Assembly (NCBI GenBank): GCA_016932495.1
Contig: JAFGCR010000011.1
Location: forward strand, 4,973-68,972
DNA: 64,000 nt
From: Candidatus Peregrinibacteria bacterium
GTDB taxonomy: Bacteria > Patescibacteriota > Gracilibacteria > UM-FILTER-43-11
Direction of reading: 5' to 3'
Under the pieces are notes generated by a model, which was not told the origin of the DNA, searched no databases, and saw nothing but the letters and a program-made list of their open reading frames with translations. Shown here in pieces: positions 17,835-51,348 of this stretch. The translations under genes and the position numbers were made by a program. Every line of letters begins with the position of its first letter. The stretch's first letter is position 1.

Positions 17835-17930
17835 TTGGCGGAGTTTTATATACCGCTGTTGTAGGGCGTATTTCGAAGCACTTAAAATTCACCCGTTCTC
17901 ATTAATATTCATAAATCCACCACCATCTTA
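17835..17930. repeat. mosaic intergenic repeat, copy R1
   Basis: Shares AGCACTTAAAATTCAC (16/16), ATAAATCCAC (10/10) and AAACGTTG with the reverse complement of 18750-18815. Confidence 0.6.
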
Positions 17931-17961
17931 TACGTCCCAGTCGCTAAAACCTCTTAAATAC

Positions 17962-17990
17962 TTGACAGATTAGTACTATTTATTTAAAAT
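17962..17990 (+). promoter_or_regulatory. sigma-70 type promoter TTGACA-N17-TAAAAT
   Basis: -35 at 17962-17967 and -10 at 17985-17990, upstream of the ATG at 18023. Confidence 0.65.
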
Positions 17991-18022
17991 AAAACACCAA
18001 GTAATTTATAATTTATAAAACC

Positions 18023-18700
18023 ATGGCTAAAGATTCAATTGAATTAGCACTTTCAGTCTTAGAAGCTGAAAAAGCCAACCTTACACCTGAACAGCGTGAA
18101 CGTCTTGCTGAATTAACAGAAGCAGGCGAAGATGTCCGTGAAAGTGTAGCAGATACACTTGAAACCAAAGAAAAACGCGAACTTTCCCCTGAACAGGCGG
18201 ATCAGCTTCTCGACACGCTCAAAACCCGCCTTGAGCTTCCTGAAAACGAGAAACTCCGTGAAGCGGTTGATTTTGCTGTTGTTGAAAAATCCCTGCGTGC
18301 CGCCCCGGAAAAAATGTTCGGTCTTTTTAGAATGGAAGAAACCGGCGGTGAGCCTCAGATCATCGGGCTTGACGGCGATGAATTTATATTTGAAGATCGC
18401 TCCAAGGAATCACCTTCAGGCCGCAGAAACCTGGATTTCGACCAAAGCTTGAAACAAGCCGAGGAGTTTGGCGTTGATATGCAGACCCCTGAAGCTTATA
18501 AAGCTATGCAGAAAACCGGTAAATTTGATATGGAAACATGGAGCTGGCTTAAAACGGATCCGGAATACAAAGAAAGAACTGGCCGCGCCTTGCGCGGCCG
18601 CCGTGTCTACGGCGGCGTGCGCGTCAGCGAGGGCTTTGCCGAGGTTCACGCTCCGCGCTTTGGGTGGCGTGCCTCGCTAAGGGTCAAAATGGTTTATTAA
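18023..18700 (+). CDS. DUF4256-like protein
   Basis: 225 aa. My recollection of the family pattern: ...METGGEP.IIG.D...F.F.D.S.ESP.GRR.L..., KTGKFD..TWSWLKT, and C-terminal FGWRASLRV. Confidence 0.65.
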   Translation: MAKDSIELALSVLEAEKANLTPEQRERLAELTEAGEDVRESVADTLETKEKRELSPEQADQLLDTLKTRLELPENEKLREAVDFAVVEKSLRAAPEKMFGLFRMEETGGEPQIIGLDGDEFIFEDRSKESPSGRRNLDFDQSLKQAEEFGVDMQTPEAYKAMQKTGKFDMETWSWLKTDPEYKERTGRALRGRRVYGGVRVSEGFAEVHAPRFGWRASLRVKMVY

Positions 18701-18720
18701 TTTTCGAATTGAATTCTAAG

Positions 18721-18744
18721 AGGTCGCTATGAGGCGACCTTTTT
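18721..18744 (+). terminator. Rho-independent terminator
   Basis: AGGTCGC (18721-18727) pairs with GCGACCT (18734-18740) and is followed by TTTT. Confidence 0.75.
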
Positions 18745-18749
18745 AGTAG

Positions 18750-18960
18750 TGTGGATTTATAAGTTACTAGAGAGTGAATTTTAAGTGCTGAGGAATATGT
18801 ACTACAACGTTTCGGCGTATGCGAAGTTTTGCCGTAGCGTAGCGGAGGCAAAATTTGGGTGAGCATTTGGCGTTAGCCAAGCGCGAACCGCATACGCCGT
18901 GTTATGTGATGTAGTAAAAAGCAAAGCCGACCAACGGGAGGCTTTATGTTTGGGGGAAAA
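18750..18960. repeat. mosaic intergenic repeat, copy R2
   Basis: The outer part is inverted relative to R1. The 18901-18960 part is inverted relative to 19756-19812. It contains a minus-strand terminator-like hairpin: AAAGCC at 18923-18928 pairs with GGCTTT at 18940-18945, with an A-run before it. Confidence 0.6.
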
Positions 18961-18964
18961 TTTA

Positions 18965-19708
18965 TTACAATTTTTCAATAATTTCATTCTTAATACTTCC
19001 ATAGGAATAATCTTCGGTTTCTTCCAGCCATTTGACTAGTGCCTCTTTGCTATCAAAAGCGCGAACATTTTTTACATAACTCTCAAGCCATTCTTTTGGA
19101 TTAGCGTCTTCTAGATCATCGCAACCAGAACAAGAGCCAAAATAGCCATTCATAATGTGCCACTTGCCATCTTTAATAAATACTGCATAATATTCACCTT
19201 GATAATCATCTTCCTTTTCAGCGATAACCCATTCTGCGTCAAATGCATCTTTTAATATTTCAAGTTGACCACCAGCATAATAACTGCTTTGAAGATTTTC
19301 ATGTCGAATATGCGGTGTCATGTCTACAAATTCATAGGGAGTGCCTTCAGTTTTTGGCTTTTGTTCTGGTCTAGTTACAACTTCTACATCTTCACCGCTG
19401 TCTTTTTTGATGTGTTGAGCAAGCTCATTGGATAAGCGAGCTGCTTCTTCATAATTTTTTTCTGATATTGCTTTTTGAAGCGCTTCAAAAAGCTGCTTTT
19501 CATGGTTCACTAATCTTTCCCGAAGCTCGCTTTCCATTTCCTTTTGTGCTTGTTCAACTTGTTCCCCAGTGAATTCTAAACGAGGCTCGCTACCTTGTTT
19601 GTCGACAACATGCTTCGCCCCGCCTTTGATTTTTTCAGCGTCACTTAATGTGCGCTCAGTTTGAATTTTTGCGATGTCTTCTGGAGACATCTTTGGTTCT
19701 TTTTCCAT
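18965..19708 (-). CDS. hypothetical protein, AT-rich relative to its neighbours
   Basis: 247-aa ORF with a coiled N-terminal half and a C-terminal segment containing GYFGSCSGCDD. No family recognised. Confidence 0.6.
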   Translation of the reverse strand: MEKEPKMSPEDIAKIQTERTLSDAEKIKGGAKHVVDKQGSEPRLEFTGEQVEQAQKEMESELRERLVNHEKQLFEALQKAISEKNYEEAARLSNELAQHIKKDSGEDVEVVTRPEQKPKTEGTPYEFVDMTPHIRHENLQSSYYAGGQLEILKDAFDAEWVIAEKEDDYQGEYYAVFIKDGKWHIMNGYFGSCSGCDDLEDANPKEWLESYVKNVRAFDSKEALVKWLEETEDYSYGSIKNEIIEKL

Positions 19709-19755
19709 AATGTTTTTAGGTTAATTAATAAATTCCTATTTAAAATTGTAATAAA

Positions 19756-19990
19756 TTTTCCCCCAAATATCAAAATCCGATAGGATTTTGGCTTTTTACT
19801 ATTTCACATAACTCGTTTCTGTCGGAAGTGTTGTGTATCTAATATACAGTTTTATGGGGGTTATAGGAACTGTTTGGTATACAACATTTATCGACAGAAA
19901 GGGAGGTGGGCGGGAAACGTTGTTGTGCCAGTCTAAAATGCCAATTTAAAATACCCACTCCTCAGAACAAAGTTGTGCAGGTGGTTGATT
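19756..19990. repeat. mosaic intergenic repeat, copy R3
   Basis: 19756-19812 matches the reverse complement of 18901-18960: TTTTCCCCCAAA 12/12, CTTTTTACTA 10/10 and TCACATAAC 9/9, with a hairpin plus T-run in between. GAAACGTTGT recurs at 19914-19923. Confidence 0.6.
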
Positions 19991-20003
19991 GTGGTGCGAT
20001 AGT

Positions 20004-20327
20004 TTATTTTAATTTTTTCTGCGCCTCGTATTCAATCGCCTCCCACTCGACGACGGTATTTTCGAGCTGATAGTAGTAGATGAAGTAACAGCAGGTCACA
20101 ATCAGCAGTACTACGAAAATGATTAAGAGCGCCGGGATCCCAAATGCCAAAGACAGTCCAAAAATGATCAAGGTGAATAATGTTACAAACATGGTTACCA
20201 GAAGATGAATAAGCCTTTCGTGGCGCAGGGTGGCCAGTGCTTTTGAATGCGTTTTTACAAAGGCGCTGTTATGGCGTGACTGTTGGATGTATTTTGTGTG
20301 TTCTTTTATTAATTGTTGTGTGCTCAT
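20004..20327 (-). CDS. hypothetical membrane protein (two TM helices)
   Basis: The ORF opens at 20363. The internal Met at 20327 (MSTQQL...) avoids overlapping pilD. Confidence 0.5.
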   Translation of the reverse strand: MSTQQLIKEHTKYIQQSRHNSAFVKTHSKALATLRHERLIHLLVTMFVTLFTLIIFGLSLAFGIPALLIIFVVLLIVTCCYFIYYYQLENTVVEWEAIEYEAQKKLK

Positions 20328-21103: not shown

Positions 21104-21130
21104 TTGTTTGGATATACGATGAGTATCGTT

Positions 21131-21610
21131 GTGGTTGTGGCGGCTGGTGTTGTTTTAGTTGTAGTTGTCGCTGATTTTACGTCGATTTTTAAATTGTTCC
21201 CACGCAGAGGCTAAGTTAAATGTTTGCCTTACGGATTTATCATATATGACTATTAATTCATCGCATAATTGAATTTCTATTTTATAAATATCCTTCACCT
21301 GTTCTAGGCTGACAATTGTTTCATTGCACTCAGCCATGGTATCGTCGAGGTATTTTTGGAATCCGGCTTTTTGATGCTTTTTGGCATAACCTTCAGCGAT
21401 TAATCTTGGTATTGCCTTACAGGAACGACTGAACTGATCTCTTAGGTCATATCTTTCAGATGCTGGCAGTTTAGGTAGTATTTCTCGCATCACCCGCAAC
21501 ATTGCCCTGTAGGTATTTTGATAAATTTCCAAATCCCTAAAACTTTTTATACTCATAATCATTCAATTTAAATACTAATGTTTCGATACGATACCAGCCG
21601 CCACAACCAC
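21131..21610. repeat. perfect 18-bp inverted repeat pair bracketing the four-helix-bundle gene
   Basis: GTGGTTGTGGCGGCTGGT at 21131-21148 and ACCAGCCGCCACAACCAC at 21593-21610. Confidence 0.85.
21155..21562 (-). CDS. four-helix-bundle protein (23S rRNA intervening-sequence protein / Avd-like family)
   Basis: 135 aa. SFRDLEIYQ...LPKLPASERYDLRDQFSRSCKAIPRLIAEGYAKK matches the family signature as I recall it. Confidence 0.8.
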   Translation of the reverse strand: MIMSIKSFRDLEIYQNTYRAMLRVMREILPKLPASERYDLRDQFSRSCKAIPRLIAEGYAKKHQKAGFQKYLDDTMAECNETIVSLEQVKDIYKIEIQLCDELIVIYDKSVRQTFNLASAWEQFKNRRKISDNYN

Positions 21611-21632
21611 ACCCCCTTACTACACCAAAAAA

Positions 21633-27971: not shown

Positions 27972-28973
27972 TTATTTTTTAGCAATATATTCCGCCAGAT
28001 TCACCATGCGGCAGGAGTAGCCCCATTCATTATCGTACCAGGCAAACACTTTTATCAGATTGTCATCCAGTACCATGGTGTTTAGGGCATCCACAATGCC
28101 GGAATGCTCATTCATCTGGAAATCTTTCGAGACCAAAGGTTTTGTTTCGACCTTAAGAATAGTGGGATGTTTTTTGGCATATGCCTCAAAGGCCGCATTC
28201 ACTGCTTCTGCTGATGTGTTCTTCTCCACTTCTACTGTCAGATCGACCAATGAAACAGTCGGCAGAGGCACGCGTACTGAAGTGCCGGTCAGTTTTCCTT
28301 TCAATTCCGGGATAACCAAACCGACAGCCTTGGCCGCCCCCGTGCTTGTGGGGATCATCGACTGCAGGGTACTGCGGGCTCGGCGCAGGTCTTTATGCGG
28401 TAAGTCCAAAATCCGCTGATCGTTGGTGGCGGCATGGATGGTCGTCATAATCCCGCGTTTGATTTTAAAGGTCTCATGCAGTGCTTTGGCTACTGGCGCC
28501 AGACAATTGGTGGTGCAGGAGGCATTGGAAAGGATTTGTTCTTTGCCGGTGAGCGTCTCTTCGTTCACACCCATCACAATCGTGGCGTCTACGGGCTCAT
28601 CGCCTTTGGCGGGAGCGGAAATAATGACTTTTTTCGCGCCGGCCTGTAAATGAAGCGCGGCTTTTTCTCTGGTCCGGAAAACGCCGGTACATTCAAATAC
28701 CACATCTACTCCAAGTTTACCCCATGGCAGCTGGGTTGGATCTTTTTCCGCGAATATTTGAACGGATTTGCCGTCCACGACCATTGCATTCTCCTTAACC
28801 TCCACTTTCCCTGGGTACCGGCCGTAGGTGGAATCAAATTCAAATAAATGAGCAAGTGTGGGAATATCGGTTAAGTCATTGATTGCAACGACTTCCAGCT
28901 TACTTTTGTGCTGCATGATGATGTGCAGGATTTGCCGGCCAATGCGGCCGAAACCATTGATGGCGACTTTCAT
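27972..28973 (-). CDS. gap: glyceraldehyde-3-phosphate dehydrogenase, type I
   Basis: MKVAINGFGRIGR, SNASCTTNCLAP, WYDNEWGYS. Confidence 0.95.
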   Translation of the reverse strand: MKVAINGFGRIGRQILHIIMQHKSKLEVVAINDLTDIPTLAHLFEFDSTYGRYPGKVEVKENAMVVDGKSVQIFAEKDPTQLPWGKLGVDVVFECTGVFRTREKAALHLQAGAKKVIISAPAKGDEPVDATIVMGVNEETLTGKEQILSNASCTTNCLAPVAKALHETFKIKRGIMTTIHAATNDQRILDLPHKDLRRARSTLQSMIPTSTGAAKAVGLVIPELKGKLTGTSVRVPLPTVSLVDLTVEVEKNTSAEAVNAAFEAYAKKHPTILKVETKPLVSKDFQMNEHSGIVDALNTMVLDDNLIKVFAWYDNEWGYSCRMVNLAEYIAKK

Positions 28974-29008: not shown

Positions 29009-29320
29009 TTAACGGATACCAGCCTCATGAAGGATACGATAATCAATCTTCGTCACTTCCCCTGACGCCTGATCGATTGGCTGGTCTTCATAGGACTTCA
29101 GAGCGCTGTCAATTCGCTTCATCCAATCTGGCGTCAGGGCTGATGGCTCATCCATAAAAGCAAAAATAATTTTAAAAGCCCCGCGGATTTCTTTAAGGAT
29201 GTCTGTCCGTTCTCTTTCAAGGACATGCAGTCTTTGAGCGGCCTGCTCCAGAAAATTAAGTTTATCGACGAATTCCATAGCGCCGTCATGTTCAGATGGT
29301 GTGGAGGGATTTTCCTTCAT
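29009..29320 (-). CDS. hypothetical protein
   Basis: 103-aa ORF between prs and gap on the same strand. No motif. Confidence 0.45.
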   Translation of the reverse strand: MKENPSTPSEHDGAMEFVDKLNFLEQAAQRLHVLERERTDILKEIRGAFKIIFAFMDEPSALTPDWMKRIDSALKSYEDQPIDQASGEVTKIDYRILHEAGIR

Positions 29321-29332
29321 CGTTTTTATTGA

Positions 29333-30277
29333 TTAATAAAACCATTTACTGGCGGATTTGTGCTGCGTCACACTACTGATGATATTGGCCAGCAGGGGCG
29401 CGATAGAGATTTGTTTCAGGCCTTTGAATTTTTTTTCTTTTGGCAGGGGCATGGTGTTAGTGACCACCACTTCCTTATAGCCCGCTTTTGATAAACGCTT
29501 AACAGCCGGACCAGAAAAAATAGGGTGGGTGGCGGCCAAATACAGGTCTTTTGCCCCCTGGCCTTTTAGCGCCTCGGCGGCGTTTGCCACACTGCCGGCG
29601 GTGTCGATCATATCGTCGTACACAATACAGGTCCGCCCTTTTACATCACCGACCACATGGGTGACCGCGGACTGGTTGTGTTCGGGCCGTTTTTTGTGGA
29701 GGATGGCGATGGGCGCGCCCAGATCATCCGCAAACCGTTTGGCGTTTTTAGCGCCGCCCGCGTCTGGAGAGACCACGGTGACATTTTTTAGGTTTTTCTT
29801 TTTGAAATAGTCCGAAAACAGCCGATGGACGATGACGTTGTCTACCGGAACGTCAAAAAATGCCTGATTCTGGTCCGAATGGAGTTCGAACGTGATCACA
29901 TGGTCCGCGCCAGCAGTAACCAGCAGATCGGCCATCACCTTGGCGGAAATCGGTTCGCGCGGCACATGCACTTTGTCCTGACGGGCGTAACCGAAATGCG
30001 GGAGAATGACATGCACTTTTTCCGCGAAGGATAATTTAGCGGCGTTGATCATCAAAAAAAGTTCTATGTAATCCTCGTTCACAAATTGGTCCCGGCACGT
30101 CTGTAAAATAAATACCTCCTGGCCGCGGATAGTCTGCTGAAGGGCTACATACTTTTCTCCGCACGAAAAAGTGGAGAGTTTTATTTCCCCCGGTTTCTTT
30201 TTCAGGGCGCGGGCTAGTTCTGTAGCGAGTTCCGGATGCGAGGAGCCGGAGAAAATGGTGTATTTATTTTCAGGCAT
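29333..30277 (-). CDS. prs: ribose-phosphate pyrophosphokinase
   Basis: IFSGSSHPELA, the LHSDQ region, and the DDMIDTAGS PRPP-binding loop. Confidence 0.95.
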   Translation of the reverse strand: MPENKYTIFSGSSHPELATELARALKKKPGEIKLSTFSCGEKYVALQQTIRGQEVFILQTCRDQFVNEDYIELFLMINAAKLSFAEKVHVILPHFGYARQDKVHVPREPISAKVMADLLVTAGADHVITFELHSDQNQAFFDVPVDNVIVHRLFSDYFKKKNLKNVTVVSPDAGGAKNAKRFADDLGAPIAILHKKRPEHNQSAVTHVVGDVKGRTCIVYDDMIDTAGSVANAAEALKGQGAKDLYLAATHPIFSGPAVKRLSKAGYKEVVVTNTMPLPKEKKFKGLKQISIAPLLANIISSVTQHKSASKWFY

Positions 30278-30439
30278 ATGGTGGTTGATTAGCGTTCGGA
30301 GATTATCTTATCATATCTCTAAGAAGCCCGACAAATCATTGTCAGGTTTTTTGGACAGAGTGTCTTTTTTGAATTATTTGGGTTGGGGGCTCAGCTTCCG
30401 TTGTCGTTTAAAACATTGGAAGCCGAGCCCACGTTGGGG

Positions 30440-30922
30440 TCACTCGAAGAGCACCTTGGCCGCTTCGGCGTGAAGGGCGAACAGCTCCTTGATGAGGGTC
30501 TTGTCCTTCTCGATGCAGTCCCGGACCTTGTCCATCACCTGGTTGTGCCAGGCGAAGATGCCCTGCTTTGCGTGGTTCGTTTGGCCGTTCGTACTTAGTG
30601 CCATGGCGGACAGGTTCAGGCTCTTGACGACGCTGATGTGGATCTCGAAGACCTGGATGATATCCTCCTTGCTGGCCTGCTTGCCGTAGAGCTCCACCGC
30701 CTTCTCGATGAGGCGGATGGTCATCTTGGTGTGCGACTCCATGCTGGAGCACACCTTCTGGAGCGCGGGTTCCGTGTAGTTGCCCACACAGGCCTGCATG
30801 ATCTTCGAGGGTTTTTCCGTCGCCACCTTGTTCGAGAAGAACTCCGCCTCCTTTGCGGATGCCTGGCTTGCGAAGATCGTTGCCATCGCCACGAACGTGA
30901 GAACGAAAAGATTCTTCGTCAT
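30440..30922 (-). CDS. secreted 160-aa helical protein encoded by a compositionally foreign GC-rich gene
   Basis: AGGAG 6 nt before the ATG. Signal peptide MTKNLFVLTFVAMATIFASQASA|KE. G/C-ending codons. 17 Lys versus 2 Arg. A downstream hairpin at 30387-30430. Confidence 0.7.
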   Translation of the reverse strand: MTKNLFVLTFVAMATIFASQASAKEAEFFSNKVATEKPSKIMQACVGNYTEPALQKVCSSMESHTKMTIRLIEKAVELYGKQASKEDIIQVFEIHISVVKSLNLSAMALSTNGQTNHAKQGIFAWHNQVMDKVRDCIEKDKTLIKELFALHAEAAKVLFE

Positions 30923-31063
30923 CTCTGACTCCTGTTACCTTGTTCAGACACATTTTCCCCCGAACCACTCGGAGAAAGAATGATTTGTCTGAGCAATTAC
31001 CCAACCCGGATAATTCAAACTTTATTTAAAAAGATCAACAACACAATTTATGTGATGATGAAC

Positions 31064-31092
31064 ATAATACAATAAAAGTGTATTTATGTCAA
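31064..31092 (-). promoter_or_regulatory. sigma-70 type promoter TTGACA-N17-TATTAT (minus strand) driving the GC-rich gene
   Basis: -35 is the reverse complement of 31087-31092; -10 is the reverse complement of 31064-31069. The leader is about 140 nt. Confidence 0.65.
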
Positions 31093-31109
31093 TAGTAAAA
31101 AGGGCTCTA

Positions 31110-32498
31110 TTATTTCGGCATTACTTCTGTTCCGCTTTGCCCGTCTTTAACAATCCATTTTCCGGATGCCTGAATTTTATCGCGGATTTCGTCGGCCTTT
31201 CCCCAGTCTTTGTTATCCCGTGCCTCATTTCTCTCCACAATCCATTGCTCAATTTGGGGGGGCAGTTCGAATGCGATTGGTTCGTCTAATTTCAATCCAA
31301 GCACCGTGTCGAATTTCTTGATGGTAGCGAGTTTGTCCGCGTCGCTTATATCCGAATCATCCAATAATTCCCATGCTTCCGCCAAAGCTTCTGGCATGTT
31401 GAGGTCGTCGTTGATTGCTTTTTCAAATTGTTCCATGCGAGATTGGTGAATCTCGCCTTCAGTATCTCCTAAATTACACACCTTTTCGCGCAGGCGGCGG
31501 AGGCCGGTTTTGGCGGCATCAAGAGCATACCAACTAAATACCAATTCTTTGCGATAATGTGCCTGCAAGCAGAAGTACCGATAATCCAACGGGCCGTAAC
31601 CTTTTCCAATCAGTACATCGAGTTTTAAAAAGTTATCGGCGGATTTGGCCATTTTTTCATCCTTTCCCAGCACCAGAAAGTTCCCATGCATCCAGTAAAG
31701 CACCCATGGCTTTAGGTTAGTGGCGCCTTCGGCCTGGGCGATTTCGTTGGTGTGGTGAACGGGGATGTGGTCGATGCCGCCGCAGTGGATATCCATTTGC
31801 TTGCCCAAATACTTCATCGACATAGCACTGCATTCAATATGCCAGCCGGGGTATCCCTTCCCCCACGGGCTATTCCATTGCATTTCCTGGTCCTCAAACT
31901 TCGATTTTGTGAACCAGAGAACAAAGTCGTGAGGGTTTTTTTTGTTGGGGTCCACTTCAATACGGGCGCCGGCCTGCAGTTCCTGCTTGTCCAGTTGCGC
32001 CAGCTTCCCATAGTCCGCGAACTTAGAGGTGTCAAAATACACATTACCTCCTGCCGTGTACGTCAGCCCATTGGCTTCGAGCTGTTTGATCTGGTCGATC
32101 ATGGTGTCGATATGGTCGGTGGCTTTGGGTTTGATGTGCGGCATCAATAAGTTGAGGCGATCCATATCTTCTAAAAATGCCTGCGTGTATTTTTCGGCAA
32201 TATCCCAAACAGTCTTTTTCTCTCGCTTTGCCCCTTTCAACATCTTATCCTCTCCCTCATCCGCGTCCGAGGTCAGATGCCCCACGTCCGTGATATTCAT
32301 CACGTGTTTTACCGGGTAACCATTCCACTCCAGAACCCGCCTTAAAATATCCTCAAAAACATACGTCCTTAAATTGCCGATATGGGCGTAGTTGTACACA
32401 GTGGGTCCGCACGTGTATAATTTCACCTCCGTCGGGTCGAGCGGTTCGAAAAGCATTTTCTGGCGGGACATGGTGTTGTAGAGGTAGAGGTCGGCCAT
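31110..32498 (-). CDS. cysS: cysteine--tRNA ligase
   Basis: CGPTVYNYAHIGNLR (HIGH) and KMAKS (KMSKS). Confidence 0.95.
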   Translation of the reverse strand: MADLYLYNTMSRQKMLFEPLDPTEVKLYTCGPTVYNYAHIGNLRTYVFEDILRRVLEWNGYPVKHVMNITDVGHLTSDADEGEDKMLKGAKREKKTVWDIAEKYTQAFLEDMDRLNLLMPHIKPKATDHIDTMIDQIKQLEANGLTYTAGGNVYFDTSKFADYGKLAQLDKQELQAGARIEVDPNKKNPHDFVLWFTKSKFEDQEMQWNSPWGKGYPGWHIECSAMSMKYLGKQMDIHCGGIDHIPVHHTNEIAQAEGATNLKPWVLYWMHGNFLVLGKDEKMAKSADNFLKLDVLIGKGYGPLDYRYFCLQAHYRKELVFSWYALDAAKTGLRRLREKVCNLGDTEGEIHQSRMEQFEKAINDDLNMPEALAEAWELLDDSDISDADKLATIKKFDTVLGLKLDEPIAFELPPQIEQWIVERNEARDNKDWGKADEIRDKIQASGKWIVKDGQSGTEVMPK

Positions 32499-45024: not shown

Positions 45025-46794
45025 ATGCATGAAAAAGTTGTCGTTTTGGATTTTGGCGGGCAATATGCCCATCTGATTGCCAACCGTATCCGCCGTTTAG
45101 GGGTTTATAGCGAAATCCAGGACGCGGAAATGCCTGCTGATCAGTTAAAAAGTTATAAAGGGATCATTCTGTCAGGCGGTCCCCAAAGCGTTTACGATAA
45201 GGATTCGCCTAAATGTGACCCTGCCATTTTTAATTTAGGCGTGCCCGTTCTTGGTATCTGTTATGGCCATCAGCTGATGCAGCAACTGCTTGGCGGGAAA
45301 GTCGTGCCCGGAAAGACAAAAGAATACGGCCTCTCTGCTTTGCGGATCAAACAGCCTGTCGGTATTTTCAGAAAAACCCCTTCCTCCATCAAGGCCTGGA
45401 TGTCCCATGGGGACACAGTTGAAGCGCCCGCTGGCGGTTTCGAAGAAATAGCTGCCACTGATGATTGTAAAAATTCGGCCCTGATGGATCCGAAGCGCCG
45501 TTTTTTCGGCCTGCAATTTCATCCTGAGGTCACCCATACCGAGCACGGCATGGATATTTTTGACCAATTCCTGGCAATATGCAAAGTTACCCGCGACTGG
45601 AGTATCGAACAATTTATTGAAGAGGAGATCAAATCGATTAAAAAGAAAATCGGGGATAAAAAAGTTTTTTTACTCGTTTCCGGAGGGGTCGATTCTTCTG
45701 TTTGTTTCGCTCTCCTTGAAAAAGCGCTGGGCAAAAAACGGGTTTACGGGCTTTGTGTGGATCATGGGCTGATGCGGAAAGATGAAGCGGGGCAAGTCAA
45801 AAAGTATCTCGCACAAGCTGGCTTTGAAAACCTCCATGTCGTTGATAAAAGTGAGGAATTTTTATCCGCCCTAACCGGCAAAATCGATCCGGAAGAAAAG
45901 CGGACGATCATCGGGGACCTTTTCTGGAAGGTGAAGGAAGACGAAGCGGAACGCCTTGAGCTTAATCCCGACGAATGGATCATGGGGCAGGGCACCATTT
46001 ACCCTGACACCATCGAAACCGGGGGGACTAAACATGCGAGCAAAATCAAAACCCATCACAACCGGGTCGACTTGATGCAGGAAATGATCAATGCCGGTAA
46101 AGTGATCGAGCCCATTGCCCAGCTTTATAAAGATGAAGTCCGTGAACTCGGAGAAAAATTAGGCCTTCCCCATGCTATGGTCTGGCGGCATCCTTTCCCC
46201 GGCCCTGGTCTGGGAGTGAGGATTTTGTGCTCTGGCGAAGAAAAAACGGTTGAATTTAAATCAGGTTCCGATTATCACATTCTCCCTATAAAATCGGTTG
46301 GCGTTCAGGGGGATTTCAGAACCTACCGCCACCCAGCCCTGCTTATGGCCAGCGCCAAAGAAGACAACGAAAGAACTGCCACCGATCTTGTGAACAGCAA
46401 CCCGGATATTAACCGCGCGGTTACGCTGGTGGGCGGGAATTTTGAAGGAAAGGCCGCAAAAGCATCTGTAAAAAAATGTTTTGTTACTTCAGAACGCGTC
46501 CGCATTCTTCAGACTGCCGATGACATTGTTACCCGTGTTCTCCATGAAATGGATTTATATGGTGCGGTGTGGCAGTTTCCGGTGGTGCTTGCCCCTTTGT
46601 CGTTTAACGGCGCTGGCGGGGAATCCATCATCCTCCGCCCCGTTGAATCCATCGATGCCATGAGCGCTTCGGCCGCTAAATTGCCCTGGGAATTTTATGA
46701 AAAGGTGTCAGCTGAAATTTTGAAGGATGACAGGGTGTCAGCTGTCCTTTTGGATGTAACAAACAAACCACCGGGAACGATCGAATGGGAATAA
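45025..46794 (+). CDS. guaA: GMP synthase (glutamine-hydrolysing), long form
   Basis: GATase ICYGHQL. ATP-PPase SGGVDSS. C-terminal KPPGTIEWE. The 589-aa length is about 65 aa longer than the common bacterial form. Confidence 0.95.
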   Translation: MHEKVVVLDFGGQYAHLIANRIRRLGVYSEIQDAEMPADQLKSYKGIILSGGPQSVYDKDSPKCDPAIFNLGVPVLGICYGHQLMQQLLGGKVVPGKTKEYGLSALRIKQPVGIFRKTPSSIKAWMSHGDTVEAPAGGFEEIAATDDCKNSALMDPKRRFFGLQFHPEVTHTEHGMDIFDQFLAICKVTRDWSIEQFIEEEIKSIKKKIGDKKVFLLVSGGVDSSVCFALLEKALGKKRVYGLCVDHGLMRKDEAGQVKKYLAQAGFENLHVVDKSEEFLSALTGKIDPEEKRTIIGDLFWKVKEDEAERLELNPDEWIMGQGTIYPDTIETGGTKHASKIKTHHNRVDLMQEMINAGKVIEPIAQLYKDEVRELGEKLGLPHAMVWRHPFPGPGLGVRILCSGEEKTVEFKSGSDYHILPIKSVGVQGDFRTYRHPALLMASAKEDNERTATDLVNSNPDINRAVTLVGGNFEGKAAKASVKKCFVTSERVRILQTADDIVTRVLHEMDLYGAVWQFPVVLAPLSFNGAGGESIILRPVESIDAMSASAAKLPWEFYEKVSAEILKDDRVSAVLLDVTNKPPGTIEWE

Positions 46795-46796
46795 TA

Positions 46797-47181
46797 AGTG
46801 CAAGTGGCAAGTGCAAGTTGCAAGCTAGGTTTTGCAATGCGCTATTTTTGTGATAAGGTCTTAATCCTAATTTATGTTTAGAGATTTATTTTTTGCAAGA
46901 TCAGTTAAAACGTGCGTCGATTTCGGTCGTTCTTAATATTGCCGAGGGTGTTGGTCGATTTACAAAAGCAGACAAAAGCCATTTTTATATTATCAGTCGT
47001 GGGTCTGCCTTTGAGGTGATTGCAGTATTGCAAATTATTGCAAACCAATATTCAGTTGATCCAAATGTTTTATGTCATTTGCGGGCAGATTTTAAAGAAG
47101 TAGTAAAAATGCTTTTTGGTTTAATAAAAAACGTTAGTCCAAAGCCAATTTTATAGGTCACTTGCACTTGCCACTTGCACT
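46797..47181. repeat. perfect 22-bp inverted repeat pair bracketing the second four-helix-bundle gene
   Basis: AGTGCAAGTGGCAAGTGCAAGT at 46797-46818 and ACTTGCACTTGCCACTTGCACT at 47160-47181. Confidence 0.85.
46874..47156 (+). pseudogene. four-helix-bundle (Avd / 23S-IVS-like) gene, apparently 5'-deleted or frameshifted
   Basis: ORF 46893..47156 (TTG start) encodes only ..QLKRASISVVLNIAEGVGRF..SRGSAFE... A family-typical start MFRDL sits at 46874 in another frame, next to a T6 run. Confidence 0.55.
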
Positions 47182-47216
47182 CGTGACTAGTAATATTAGA
47201 AGCCCTAATTGCTTTT

Positions 47217-50051: not shown

Positions 50052-50076
50052 TTGGAGGGGAGTTCTGGTCCAGCGA

Positions 50077-51105
50077 TCAGCTGAGCTGGCGCTGGGTGTT
50101 CGTGTTCGGTTTGACGAAGGTGCCGGTGAGCACCATCGCCAGGCAGCCTGCGCCGACCATGGCCAGGGCGGCCACAGGGCTGAAGCTGTAAGCGATGATG
50201 ATGGCACACACCAGGGAGCCTGCGCCGATGAGGCTCTTGCCGAGCCGGCCAGGCGTTGCCACGGTGATGTGGGCGCCCGTGCGGCGCATGTTGATGGCCG
50301 TGATGAGCTGGATGAGGGCAAAGTAGAGTCCTGCCAGCAGGGCCAGGATGAGCAGGAACGAGGTGGTGCCTGAGACACCGTGTTCCACGGTAGCTGCGGC
50401 CTGACCGGCCGATGACAGCTTGGGCTCAGTGGGGCTGAAGTAGTCCACCGAGTCATCCCGATAGGACACGATTTTGACCTCCTCGTCCTGGACGATTTGG
50501 TCTTCAGGGGCGTCGATTGCCCCGCGCGTGAGATACCGGTCCCGCGGGACGAGGGGGGATTCTTCCAGCGGGATGCCGAGGCTGCTGATCAGCCAGTTGT
50601 TGACGTCGCCGTCCGGCAGGAAGCGTCCGACCATGTTGAGGGTCACTGGCAGGATGCTGACCTTGCGCTTGCCCTTCTCAACGGTGAGATGGGCGTAGAG
50701 CAAGCACTCGAGTTTGAGCTCGTACGTGCGGATCTGCAGGCCCTTCTCCTCGAGCTCGCTGACCCGGAACACCCGCTTGACCGGGTTGTTCGCGTTGGGG
50801 TTGGCTTGCTCACAGGTCGTGAAGTTCCCCCACTGGTAGTTCTCACGGTCGAAGTCGGCAGTACCGGGTGGGAACTTCTCGGACCAGAACAGGATGCGGT
50901 GGTTTTGGCGGTCCTTGTCCGCCTCGTCTTCGTAGAACACCACCGTGCCGTTGTTGGCGTTGATCACGTTGTAGAGCGCACGGGCGTCGTACTCGGTGAT
51001 CGCGACGCCGGGGCCACTAGCCTTTTGTTCGAACGTGACCTCCTTGGCGGAGGCCGGAGAGACGATGATCAGGGTCACCGCAACGATCAGTGCGAAGCGT
51101 TTCAT
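50077..51105 (-). CDS. secreted protein with a C-terminal multi-TM anchor, encoded by a compositionally foreign GC-rich gene
   Basis: GGGAGGA SD before the ATG. Signal peptide MKRFALIVAVTLIIVSPASA|KE. About 3 C-terminal TM helices. 43/60 G+C in 50221-50280. Confidence 0.7.
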   Translation of the reverse strand: MKRFALIVAVTLIIVSPASAKEVTFEQKASGPGVAITEYDARALYNVINANNGTVVFYEDEADKDRQNHRILFWSEKFPPGTADFDRENYQWGNFTTCEQANPNANNPVKRVFRVSELEEKGLQIRTYELKLECLLYAHLTVEKGKRKVSILPVTLNMVGRFLPDGDVNNWLISSLGIPLEESPLVPRDRYLTRGAIDAPEDQIVQDEEVKIVSYRDDSVDYFSPTEPKLSSAGQAAATVEHGVSGTTSFLLILALLAGLYFALIQLITAINMRRTGAHITVATPGRLGKSLIGAGSLVCAIIIAYSFSPVAALAMVGAGCLAMVLTGTFVKPNTNTQRQLS

Positions 51106-51348
51106 GGTTTTCCTCCCTATTTCTAGTTCGTTTGAACCTTGGTTACCAAAAGTACAACTCGCCTGCGGGCGAGAAAAAGAGACGTTAAATTTATCTATTT
51201 AGCTCGCGTTGGCGAGAGTGTTTATTGCGACCAGAACTCCTTGCCTGCCAGGAGCTTTACGTCCCCTAGGGGCGCTGGGCTACACTAACAGACAGAAGGA
51301 TGGCCGCAATGAAGCTAATTGTAAAAGAACATGATTGAAAGTGAAAAT

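Follow-up and report, generated by a model that had tools for sequence, protein, structure and literature searches.

A conserved repeat bracket, possibly acting on the mRNA, frames a lineage-restricted gene module between cysS and prs in a Peregrinibacteria genome

The window analyzed here is a stretch of 64,000 nucleotides from Candidatus Peregrinibacteria bacterium (NCBI GenBank assembly GCA_016932495.1, contig JAFGCR010000011.1, positions 4,973 to 68,972 of the forward strand), in which a small gene for a predicted exported protein lies between cysS and prs, enclosed by a pair of imperfect inverted repeats. Our analysis revealed that this gene belongs to an accessory unit of 745 bp, and that the promoter, the repeat arms and the spacings of this unit recur in three metagenomic relatives, in one of them around an unrelated gene. 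The reading that we tentatively favor, at slightly less than an even chance, is that of an autonomous, lineage-restricted gene module whose conserved 5'/3' bracket acts on the mRNA. The module would comprise its own consensus promoter, a structured leader of ~135 nt, a single open reading frame (ORF) and a 3' stem-loop, and in some few members of a single Peregrinibacteria family it would stand immediately behind cysS. The arms, which are not the ends of the unit, would be a conserved cis-element of it, a view to which we give not quite even weight. In window coordinates, the features of the module and its edges are the following.

31110..31112, minus strand: stop codon of cysS, bounding on the right the indel that distinguishes the window from the sister species G002
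30365..31109, minus strand: the whole accessory module, 745 bp, in place of which G002 has AC
31064..31092, minus strand: promoter TTGACA-N17-TATTAT of sigma-70 type, scoring 11/12, with a -35 block ATTGACA that is invariant in 4/4 modules
31039..31057, minus strand: predicted transcript start at ~31057 and putative small 5'-terminal hairpin CACA-UAAAU-UGUG
31000..31019, minus strand: right arm, the predicted 5' arm of the mRNA, TTTGAATTATCCGGGTTGGG, beginning 44 nt after the -10 box and near-invariant in the four modules
30940..30996, minus strand: leader stem-loop with outer stem CAGACA/UGUCUG and inner stem CCGA/UCGG, conserved in part among the three modules that carry a gene of the 160-amino-acid (aa) type
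30929..30933, minus strand: Shine-Dalgarno sequence AGGAG, 6 nt ahead of the ATG
30440..30922, minus strand: ORF of a 160-aa predicted exported helical orphan protein (signal peptide codons 30854-30922; GC content at third codon positions, GC3, 0.88; three conserved cysteines)
30433..30437, minus strand: Box 1, CCAAC right behind the stop codon, at a distance of 3-5 nt from it in each of the four modules
30387..30430, minus strand: strong stem-loop, -28.8 kcal/mol, z = -6.8 against shuffles, without a U-tract, adjoining the left arm
30368..30387, minus strand: left arm, the predicted 3' arm of the mRNA, CCCAACCCAAATAATTCAAA; similarity to L163, L262 and G002 stops at most 3 nt from its outer end
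30327..30346, minus strand: hairpin CCUGACAAUGAUUUGUCGGG followed by CUUCUU, common to the window and the empty site of G002 and overlapping the prs promoter region

The architecture of the window was found in three metagenomic relatives, namely L005, L163 and L262. The order shared by the four modules is a TTGACA-N17 promoter, 43-44 nt, an arm TTTGAATTATYYGGGTTGG, a leader, an ORF, a CCAAC box, a stable hairpin and an arm CAACCCAAAYARTTCAAA. In the window, L005 and L163 the small 5' hairpin lies inside the 43-44 nt, and the arm TTTGAATTATYCGGGTTGG, a leader of ~80 nt, a 3' hairpin of 13 bp or more and the arm CAACCCAAAYAATTCAAA could also be distinguished. Three spacings are fixed in the four modules, those from the -10 box to the arm (43-44 nt), from the stop codon to CCAAC (3-5 nt) and from the hairpin to the 3' arm (1-3 nt). 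A 5'-terminal hairpin is predicted at the equivalent position in 4/4 modules, with sequences that differ. The only invariant non-coding blocks in the four-way alignments are ATTGACA and the two arms. Between the window and L005 the non-coding identity reaches 82% in the 5' part and 91% in the 3' part, despite saturated synonymous sites. The stem-loop at 30387-30430 has kept its position and structure between lineages but not its sequence; the 3' hairpin occurs with three unrelated stem sequences (z -5.9 to -7.7), and one compensatory change, C-G to U-A, distinguishes the window from L005. The non-coding frame with its fixed spacings is under strong purifying selection, at a divergence that has saturated synonymous sites. 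The covariance models of Rfam 15 gave no match with E <=5 on either strand of positions 30200-31250.

The module of L262 was recovered by a degenerate 19-mer scan of metagenome contigs, which returned 108 matches, ~107 of them chance singles and one a true module. Its promoter spacing is 43 nt, it has matching arms and the CCAAC box, its hairpin differs in sequence from those of the other modules, and its cargo is an unrelated Lys-rich protein of 93-97 aa without a signal peptide. Modules of this type were found in five assemblies (L262/L344-L348), in all cases in the miaB-GT4 spacer. According to MiaB (71-73% identity to four family members; <=51% outside), the host belongs to another genus of the same family. 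The miaB-GT4 spacer is empty in G017 and G016 (107-160 nt) and contains an ORF of 303-312 aa in G024 and G010 (loci L352-L357). In the genome of the window (C32:7973-8362) it is occupied by a four-helix gene of intervening sequence (IVS) type, between arms of ATGTCCG-like heptamer repeats. This spacer is a second variable hot spot in the family.

Comparison with close relatives defined the boundaries of the unit. In G002 (same genus, Prs 95% identical) the TAA of cysS is followed by AC and then by GACACTCTGTCC..., which is the prs leader, with nothing between; relative to it, the window has 745 extra bases at 30365-31109. On the left this indel ends 3 nt outside the left arm, and on the right it extends to the cysS stop, 90 bp past the right arm. 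Since the indel reaches 90 bp past the right arm, the promoter belongs to the accessory unit. As the initial annotation of this DNA had noted, the promoter (31092->31064) lies outside the repeat and just past the cysS stop; the distance to the stop is 17 nt. A consistent target-site duplication, which that annotation had not seen either, is lacking, AAAG flanking both sides in the window only and the flanks of L005, L163 and L262 being unmatched. Given the overrun at the right arm, the missing target-site duplication and the absence of a second copy, the repeats are not the termini of inserted DNA. The unit is also absent from G001 (Prs 92%), in which the sequence CCAACATCCCGGATCATTAC after cysS was considered as a relic arm and proved too weak to call. 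The proposal of a cassette placed between prs and cysS therefore holds in so far as an accessory indel unit is concerned, empty in G002 and lacking in G001, but the repeats do not delimit this unit, which includes the promoter.

The arms had originally been described as 17-bp imperfect inverted repeats enclosing a hairpin at 30387-30430, and both elements are real. The sequences GAATTATTTGGGTTGGG at 30371-30387 and CCCAACCCGGATAATTC at 31000-31016 are inverted copies with 15/17 matching, and their complementarity extends to 18/20 at 30368-30387 / 31000-31019. With <=2 mismatches allowed, the arm motif matches in the window at the two arms only (0.06 expected), and the same was observed for the whole genome (1.18 Mb, 50 contigs), which rules out that the 17-mer is common simple sequence. 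No other paired arm copy was present in 401 class genomes or 32 order genomes, the exact 20-mer of the right arm had no match in metagenome contigs, and the arm motif gave chance matches only in viral contigs. A scan for the 17-mer across genome contigs was uninformative, returning at least 119 single matches in unrelated phyla, all of them chance (~280 expected), and two identical arm-like matches in G047 turned out to be part of a repeated coding sequence. The inverted repeat by itself is not exceptional in this genome. Indeed, 20 clusters of 17-mer inverted pairs (<=2 mismatches, 100-1500 nt apart) were counted in the window vs 6.0 +/- 2.7 in Markov simulations, and a 5'/3' flank repeat of at least 15/17 was found at 17/956 genes; RNAduplex energies of the 5' and 3' flanks of all genes were not discriminating. 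The case for a function of the arms thus follows from their conservation in relatives and not from the quality of the repeat.

Concerning the mode of action, we infer that both arms are transcribed, and likewise the ends of the transcript, the pairing in vivo and its effect. The arms would be part of one transcript, because none of the modules has a U-tract at the 3' hairpin and the next terminator-like hairpin stands ~20 nt past the left arm (30327-30346, in the window and L005). The latter hairpin is likely the terminator of the module transcript and, ancestrally, of cysS. The arms would pair across ~610 nt into a 20-bp helix stacking on the adjacent 3' hairpin, which would give a rod of ~35-40 bp, and the helix together with the 5'-terminal hairpin would close both ends of the mRNA. 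The outcome may be either that the message is protected and long-lived or that RNase III is offered a defined double-stranded site. When the whole predicted transcripts (665-736 nt) were folded, the pairing probability of the arms was ~1.0 in the window, L005 and L163, and removal of the 3' arm cost the fold 10-17.5 kcal/mol in all four modules. An RNase III gene is encoded at C34:6605-6985. On these grounds the arms are read as an mRNA end-clamp.

Several observations weigh against an action of the arms on the mRNA. The transcription start site, the 3' end and the read-through of the 3' hairpin are predictions. No compensatory double change was seen in the long-range helix, the five arm differences being all single-sided transitions; these read as C-A on the sense mRNA and as G-U on the antisense strand in three modules, with the reverse in L262. 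In addition, the arms have kept their very sequence around unrelated cargo, and this points to a sequence-specific factor on DNA or RNA and not to pairing alone. The predicted accessibility of the Shine-Dalgarno sequence is unaffected by removal of the 3' arm, and no translational lock is visible: the unpaired probability of the Shine-Dalgarno sequence and AUG with/without the 3' arm is 0.45/0.46, 0.71/0.72, 0.53/0.52 and 0.14/0.14 in the four modules. Finally, such clamps are not present at all other GC3-rich genes.

Long-range pairing around a gene has precedents. ORF-bearing intervening sequences are known from 23S rRNA, e.g., that of Coxiella burnetii with S23p (PMC4990558). Like these IVS and the processing stems of rRNA, the module has an ORF flanked by inverted repeats that would pair into a long-range stem with the ORF in its loop, in this case a predicted RNase III substrate; unlike them, it lies outside rRNA, has its own promoter and carries a cargo unrelated to the IVS protein family. 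Long-distance pairing between the 5' and 3' parts of a single mRNA occurs in hok (fbi/tac), in other type I toxin mRNAs and in icaR, where pairing of the 5' and 3' untranslated regions (UTRs) involves RNase III. As in hok and icaR, pairing that closes the molecule is predicted between the 5' leader and the 3' end of one mRNA, whereas in the module the Shine-Dalgarno sequence stays outside the helix, the cargo is a 160-aa predicted exported protein rather than a small toxin, and no antisense RNA is known. As the accessibility is independent of the clamp, a hok-like translational lock is unlikely. A type I toxin-antitoxin mRNA lock was likewise rejected, with a 160-aa exported helical protein as the ORF product and an unchanged accessibility of the ribosome binding site.

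The product of the ORF at 30440..30922 agrees with its first description as a secreted, Lys-rich, helical protein of 160 aa. It has a signal-peptide-like N-terminus ending in A-S-A, which is invariant in the homologues, and a lysine content of 11%, and AlphaFold gives a helical bundle behind a disordered N-terminus (pLDDT 73.5). In the favored reading the protein is an exported four-helix orphan. No significant Pfam, NCBIfam or PHROG family was assigned to it, and a Foldseek search against the PDB returned nothing at E <=0.001. Only two homologues turned up, both among 5.8 billion clustered proteins and when 1.84 billion representatives were searched in full with HMMER. P0002 (171 aa, 54-58% identical) is encoded on contig L005 directly upstream of prs-gap-beta-CASP, i.e., at the equivalent locus, and P0003 (144-149 aa, 44% identical) on L163 directly past the 3' end of cysS, with a different gene downstream. 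The protein evolves fast, with a dN of 0.30 vs 0.044 for prs between the window and L005. Kinship of the cargo with the IVS-type four-helix proteins of its own genome was rejected (hhalign probability 0.05).

The segment had also been called GC-rich, which is true of the ORF, while the excess is confined to third positions. The GC1/2/3 values of the ORF are 0.50/0.34/0.88 vs a genome GC3 of 0.55 +/- 0.09, the third highest of ~1008 ORFs, and around the ORF the non-coding DNA of the unit is AT-rich, with 35-44% GC. The GC3 of the homologues is also above their own background (0.71 vs 0.38 in L163; 0.48 vs 0.33-0.40 in L005). The initial annotation had held that a relative with the same gene in native composition at this locus would speak against a cassette, and L005, with a GC3 of 0.48 vs 0.33-0.40 in its neighbors, partly provides one. 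Third-position identity between the window and L005 is 0.48 in prs and 0.45 in the ORF, i.e., synonymous sites are saturated in both. Since the homologues are GC3-elevated and saturation extends even to prs, a foreign origin or a replacement of the ORF is not needed; an exchange of the ORF for a foreign allele between conserved flanks was rejected, as third-position identity is as low in prs as in the ORF. Codon bias due to high expression was also rejected as the source of the high GC3, the values of EF-Tu, GroEL, DnaK, EF-G and S12 being 0.53-0.65.

It is possible, though we have our doubts, that a portable 'expression bracket' specific to one Peregrinibacteria family is made up of promoter, 5' arm, CCAAC, hairpin and 3' arm, a frame receiving unrelated cargo or carrying it between intergenic hot spots. 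If true, such a frame would amount to a kind of gene cassette or mRNA end-clamp device not described before in bacteria of the candidate phyla radiation (CPR), recognized by a sequence-specific factor.

An explanation that we judge unlikely is that the arms are DNA recombination or mobilization sites of a cassette system. A family-specific enzyme would recognize the inverted TTTGAATTATYYGGGTTGG, possibly as single-stranded DNA hairpins, and cargo would be exchanged or moved between hot spots, in a way resembling mobile insertion cassettes (MICs), pdif modules or integron cassettes. Such sites would fit the conservation of the arm sequence, and not just of its pairing, around two unrelated cargo genes at two loci, both of which are variable spacers with empty sites (G002 and G001 for cysS-prs; G017 and G016 for miaB-GT4). 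The position of a GC3-rich ORF within an AT-rich conserved frame, the loss of similarity to G002, L163 and L262 right at the outer end of the left arm, and the genome-wide excess of repeat-bracketed small genes point in the same direction. However, the overrun of 90 bp at the right arm, the promoter-arm distance fixed in four modules and the missing target-site duplication are difficult to reconcile with it. The module is also present in a single copy per genome, with no paired copy in the class and order genomes or in viral contigs, and no recombinase or transposase gene lies beside either module, the genome having two Xer-like tyrosine recombinases and no serine recombinase. Furthermore, the divergence of the ORF tracks that of the host, which suggests vertical descent. 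The hairpin is flanked by boxes that repeat directly (CCAAC ... CAACCC) and lack complementarity, unlike the inverted boxes of attC, and GTTGGGY occurs in the 5' arm only, with neither Xer-like recombinase adjacent; integron attC was therefore rejected. When attC, IS200/IS605 and dif-like architectures were compared by eye, none was matched.

Among described elements, MICs consist of passenger genes between terminal inverted repeats and are free of transposase, e.g., in Xanthomonas and in the Bacillus cereus group (PMC4337579, PMC6542083). The module resembles them in having one passenger gene between imperfect ~20-bp inverted repeats, no internal transposase and a presence/absence pattern in close relatives, but differs in that the promoter outside the right repeat is part of the unit, no target-site duplication is seen and one copy exists per genome. 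Arm-motif searches in its own genome and in the 401 class genomes turned up no cognate insertion sequence with matching ends, transposase genes not having been specifically sought. The pdif modules of Acinetobacter plasmids carry cargo between inverted XerC/D sites. Similarities with these are the diverse cargo between conserved inverted sites, the missing target-site duplication and a genome whose only recombinases are Xer-like; in contrast to pdif, the module is chromosomal and single-copy, the promoter is part of the conserved unit, and no 11-6-11 XerC/XerD architecture was recognized by eye. Phage 'morons', reportedly described by Juhala and Hendrix in 2000, are said to be autonomous promoter-ORF-terminator units between conserved genes, often of deviant composition. 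The module is moron-like as a self-contained one-gene unit with its own consensus promoter, a 3' hairpin and deviant GC, standing between conserved genes and absent from a sister genome, whereas it is located in the cellular chromosome of a CPR bacterium and has no phage context (no PHROG match). To our knowledge, a conserved 5'/3' repeat bracket has not been reported for morons.

The arms might also be paired operators, at ~+37 to +56 and behind the gene, through which a sequence-specific DNA-binding regulator would control a small regulon by looping or as a road-block, but we consider this quite improbable. The conservation of sequence without covariation, the fixed distance of the 5' arm from the promoter and the occurrence of the motif at an unrelated gene in a second genus would all be expected of operators. 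On the other hand, a regulon should give several sites per genome and a single pair was found, no regulator gene is linked to either module, and both the conserved hairpin abutting the 3' arm and the CCAAC box would be left unexplained.

There is very little, in our opinion, to recommend an action of the helix on the plus strand of the window, where an antisense transcript across the ORF would form a helix of 20 bp, perfect when G-U wobbles are counted and with UUUAUUU behind it, and would act as an antisense regulator or a terminator-like structure. It is true that the arm differences of the window, L005 and L163 are all G-U on the plus strand and C-A on the mRNA strand, and that the arm duplex energy is -24 to -29 kcal/mol on the former vs -21 to -24 kcal/mol on the latter; L262, however, shows the opposite, U-G in sense and C-A in antisense. 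A promoter-like site exists on the plus strand at 30285-30314, but it is weak (9/12) and overlaps the prs leader, while it is the sense strand that has the conserved consensus promoter, the 5' hairpin and the spacing that is fixed. Hardly any credence can be given to an invertible on/off switch, in which a site-specific invertase flips the segment and causes phase variation of the exported protein: the promoter outside the arms with the ORF inside, the predicted export of the cargo and an arm sequence conserved as for a recombinase site are set against an identical (ON) orientation in 8/8 independent assemblies (window, L005, L163, L262/L344-L348), a CC/TT difference at the central arm positions 11-12 that is kept in the window and L005 and is unexpected if halves are exchanged, the presence of two Xer-size tyrosine recombinases only, with no serine invertase, and the lack of a signal peptide in the L262 cargo.

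As regards the surroundings of the module, the cysS-prs spacer of most other genera of the family (L137, L148, L149, L151, L152, L156, L161) holds a pdxT-like glutamine amidotransferase gene, often accompanied by an ORF of 100-130 aa, and both have been lost from this spot in the genus of the window. The prs-gap neighborhood has a mosaic history, as seen from Gap and from a 103-aa ORF. L005 shares 92% identity with the window in Prs but only 66% aa identity in Gap (dN 0.25), Gap of G002 being 93-96% identical (gap at window 27972-28973; L005:1907-2911). The 103-aa ORF between prs and gap (window 29009-29320) is found in the window and in G001 (53%) and is absent from G002 and L005. Besides the gap of the window, a second GAPDH-like gene (335 aa, SCTTNC motif) is located at C16:418-1425.

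The ORF shares its high GC3 with others across the genome that reach 0.80 or more and form a discrete class (genome median 0.56, 99th percentile 0.74), and an N-terminal hydrophobic, signal-like segment was noted in 8/8 of them (filtered gene set). Members include those at window 50077-51105 (C25:55049-56077), C45:6849-8816, C45:10317-11825, C27:4036-4431, C12:1827-2294, C18:41288-41644 and C16:14659-15480. The GC-rich ORFs are a class of exported-protein genes, and such a composition alone is no evidence of a foreign cassette. The GC3-rich exported gene at 50077..51105 has a perfect 12-nt inverted repeat (50059-50070 / 51229-51240) between its long leader and its 3' flank, the 3' arm of the bracket beginning 6 nt past the stop.

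Eight genes are bracketed by a perfect inverted repeat, 16 nt or longer, between their 5' and 3' flanks, vs 0.6 in permuted flank pairings. These genes are located at window 21155-21562 (C25:26127-26534), C41:2902-3294, C21:3464-3757, C11:14356-15240, C50:3762-4718, C8:17395-18921, C20:7835-9013 and C25:22995-23672, and their products include IVS-type four-helix, GxxExxY-like and GIY-YIG proteins. In the window itself a nest of long inverted-repeat pairs was observed at 17874-20183, 21127-21614 and 46794-47184, with pairs such as 18943-18977/19739-19773 (35 nt), 18901-18922/19791-19812, 21127-21153/21588-21614 and 46794-46821/47157-47184 (GCAAGTG-type repeat arms). Single genes in a repeat bracket, placed at variable spacers, thus recur as a theme in this lineage.

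Very little is known about gene regulation and gene flux in uncultured CPR bacteria, and in the present case one frame encloses two unrelated genes in two genera. The module is akin to several known kinds of arrangement, namely moron-like units, IVS-like stems and the pairing of 5' and 3' UTRs. If the arms clamp the ends of the mRNA, they would represent a compact, testable case in which accessory genes of reduced genomes have 5'-3' end pairing built in by design, while if they act on DNA, a new cassette system would be at hand. Either way, the simple reading of a GC-rich island between inverted repeats as a foreign transposed cassette is corrected, and the module is linked both to the genome-wide excess of repeat-bracketed single genes and to the class of GC3-rich genes for exported proteins.

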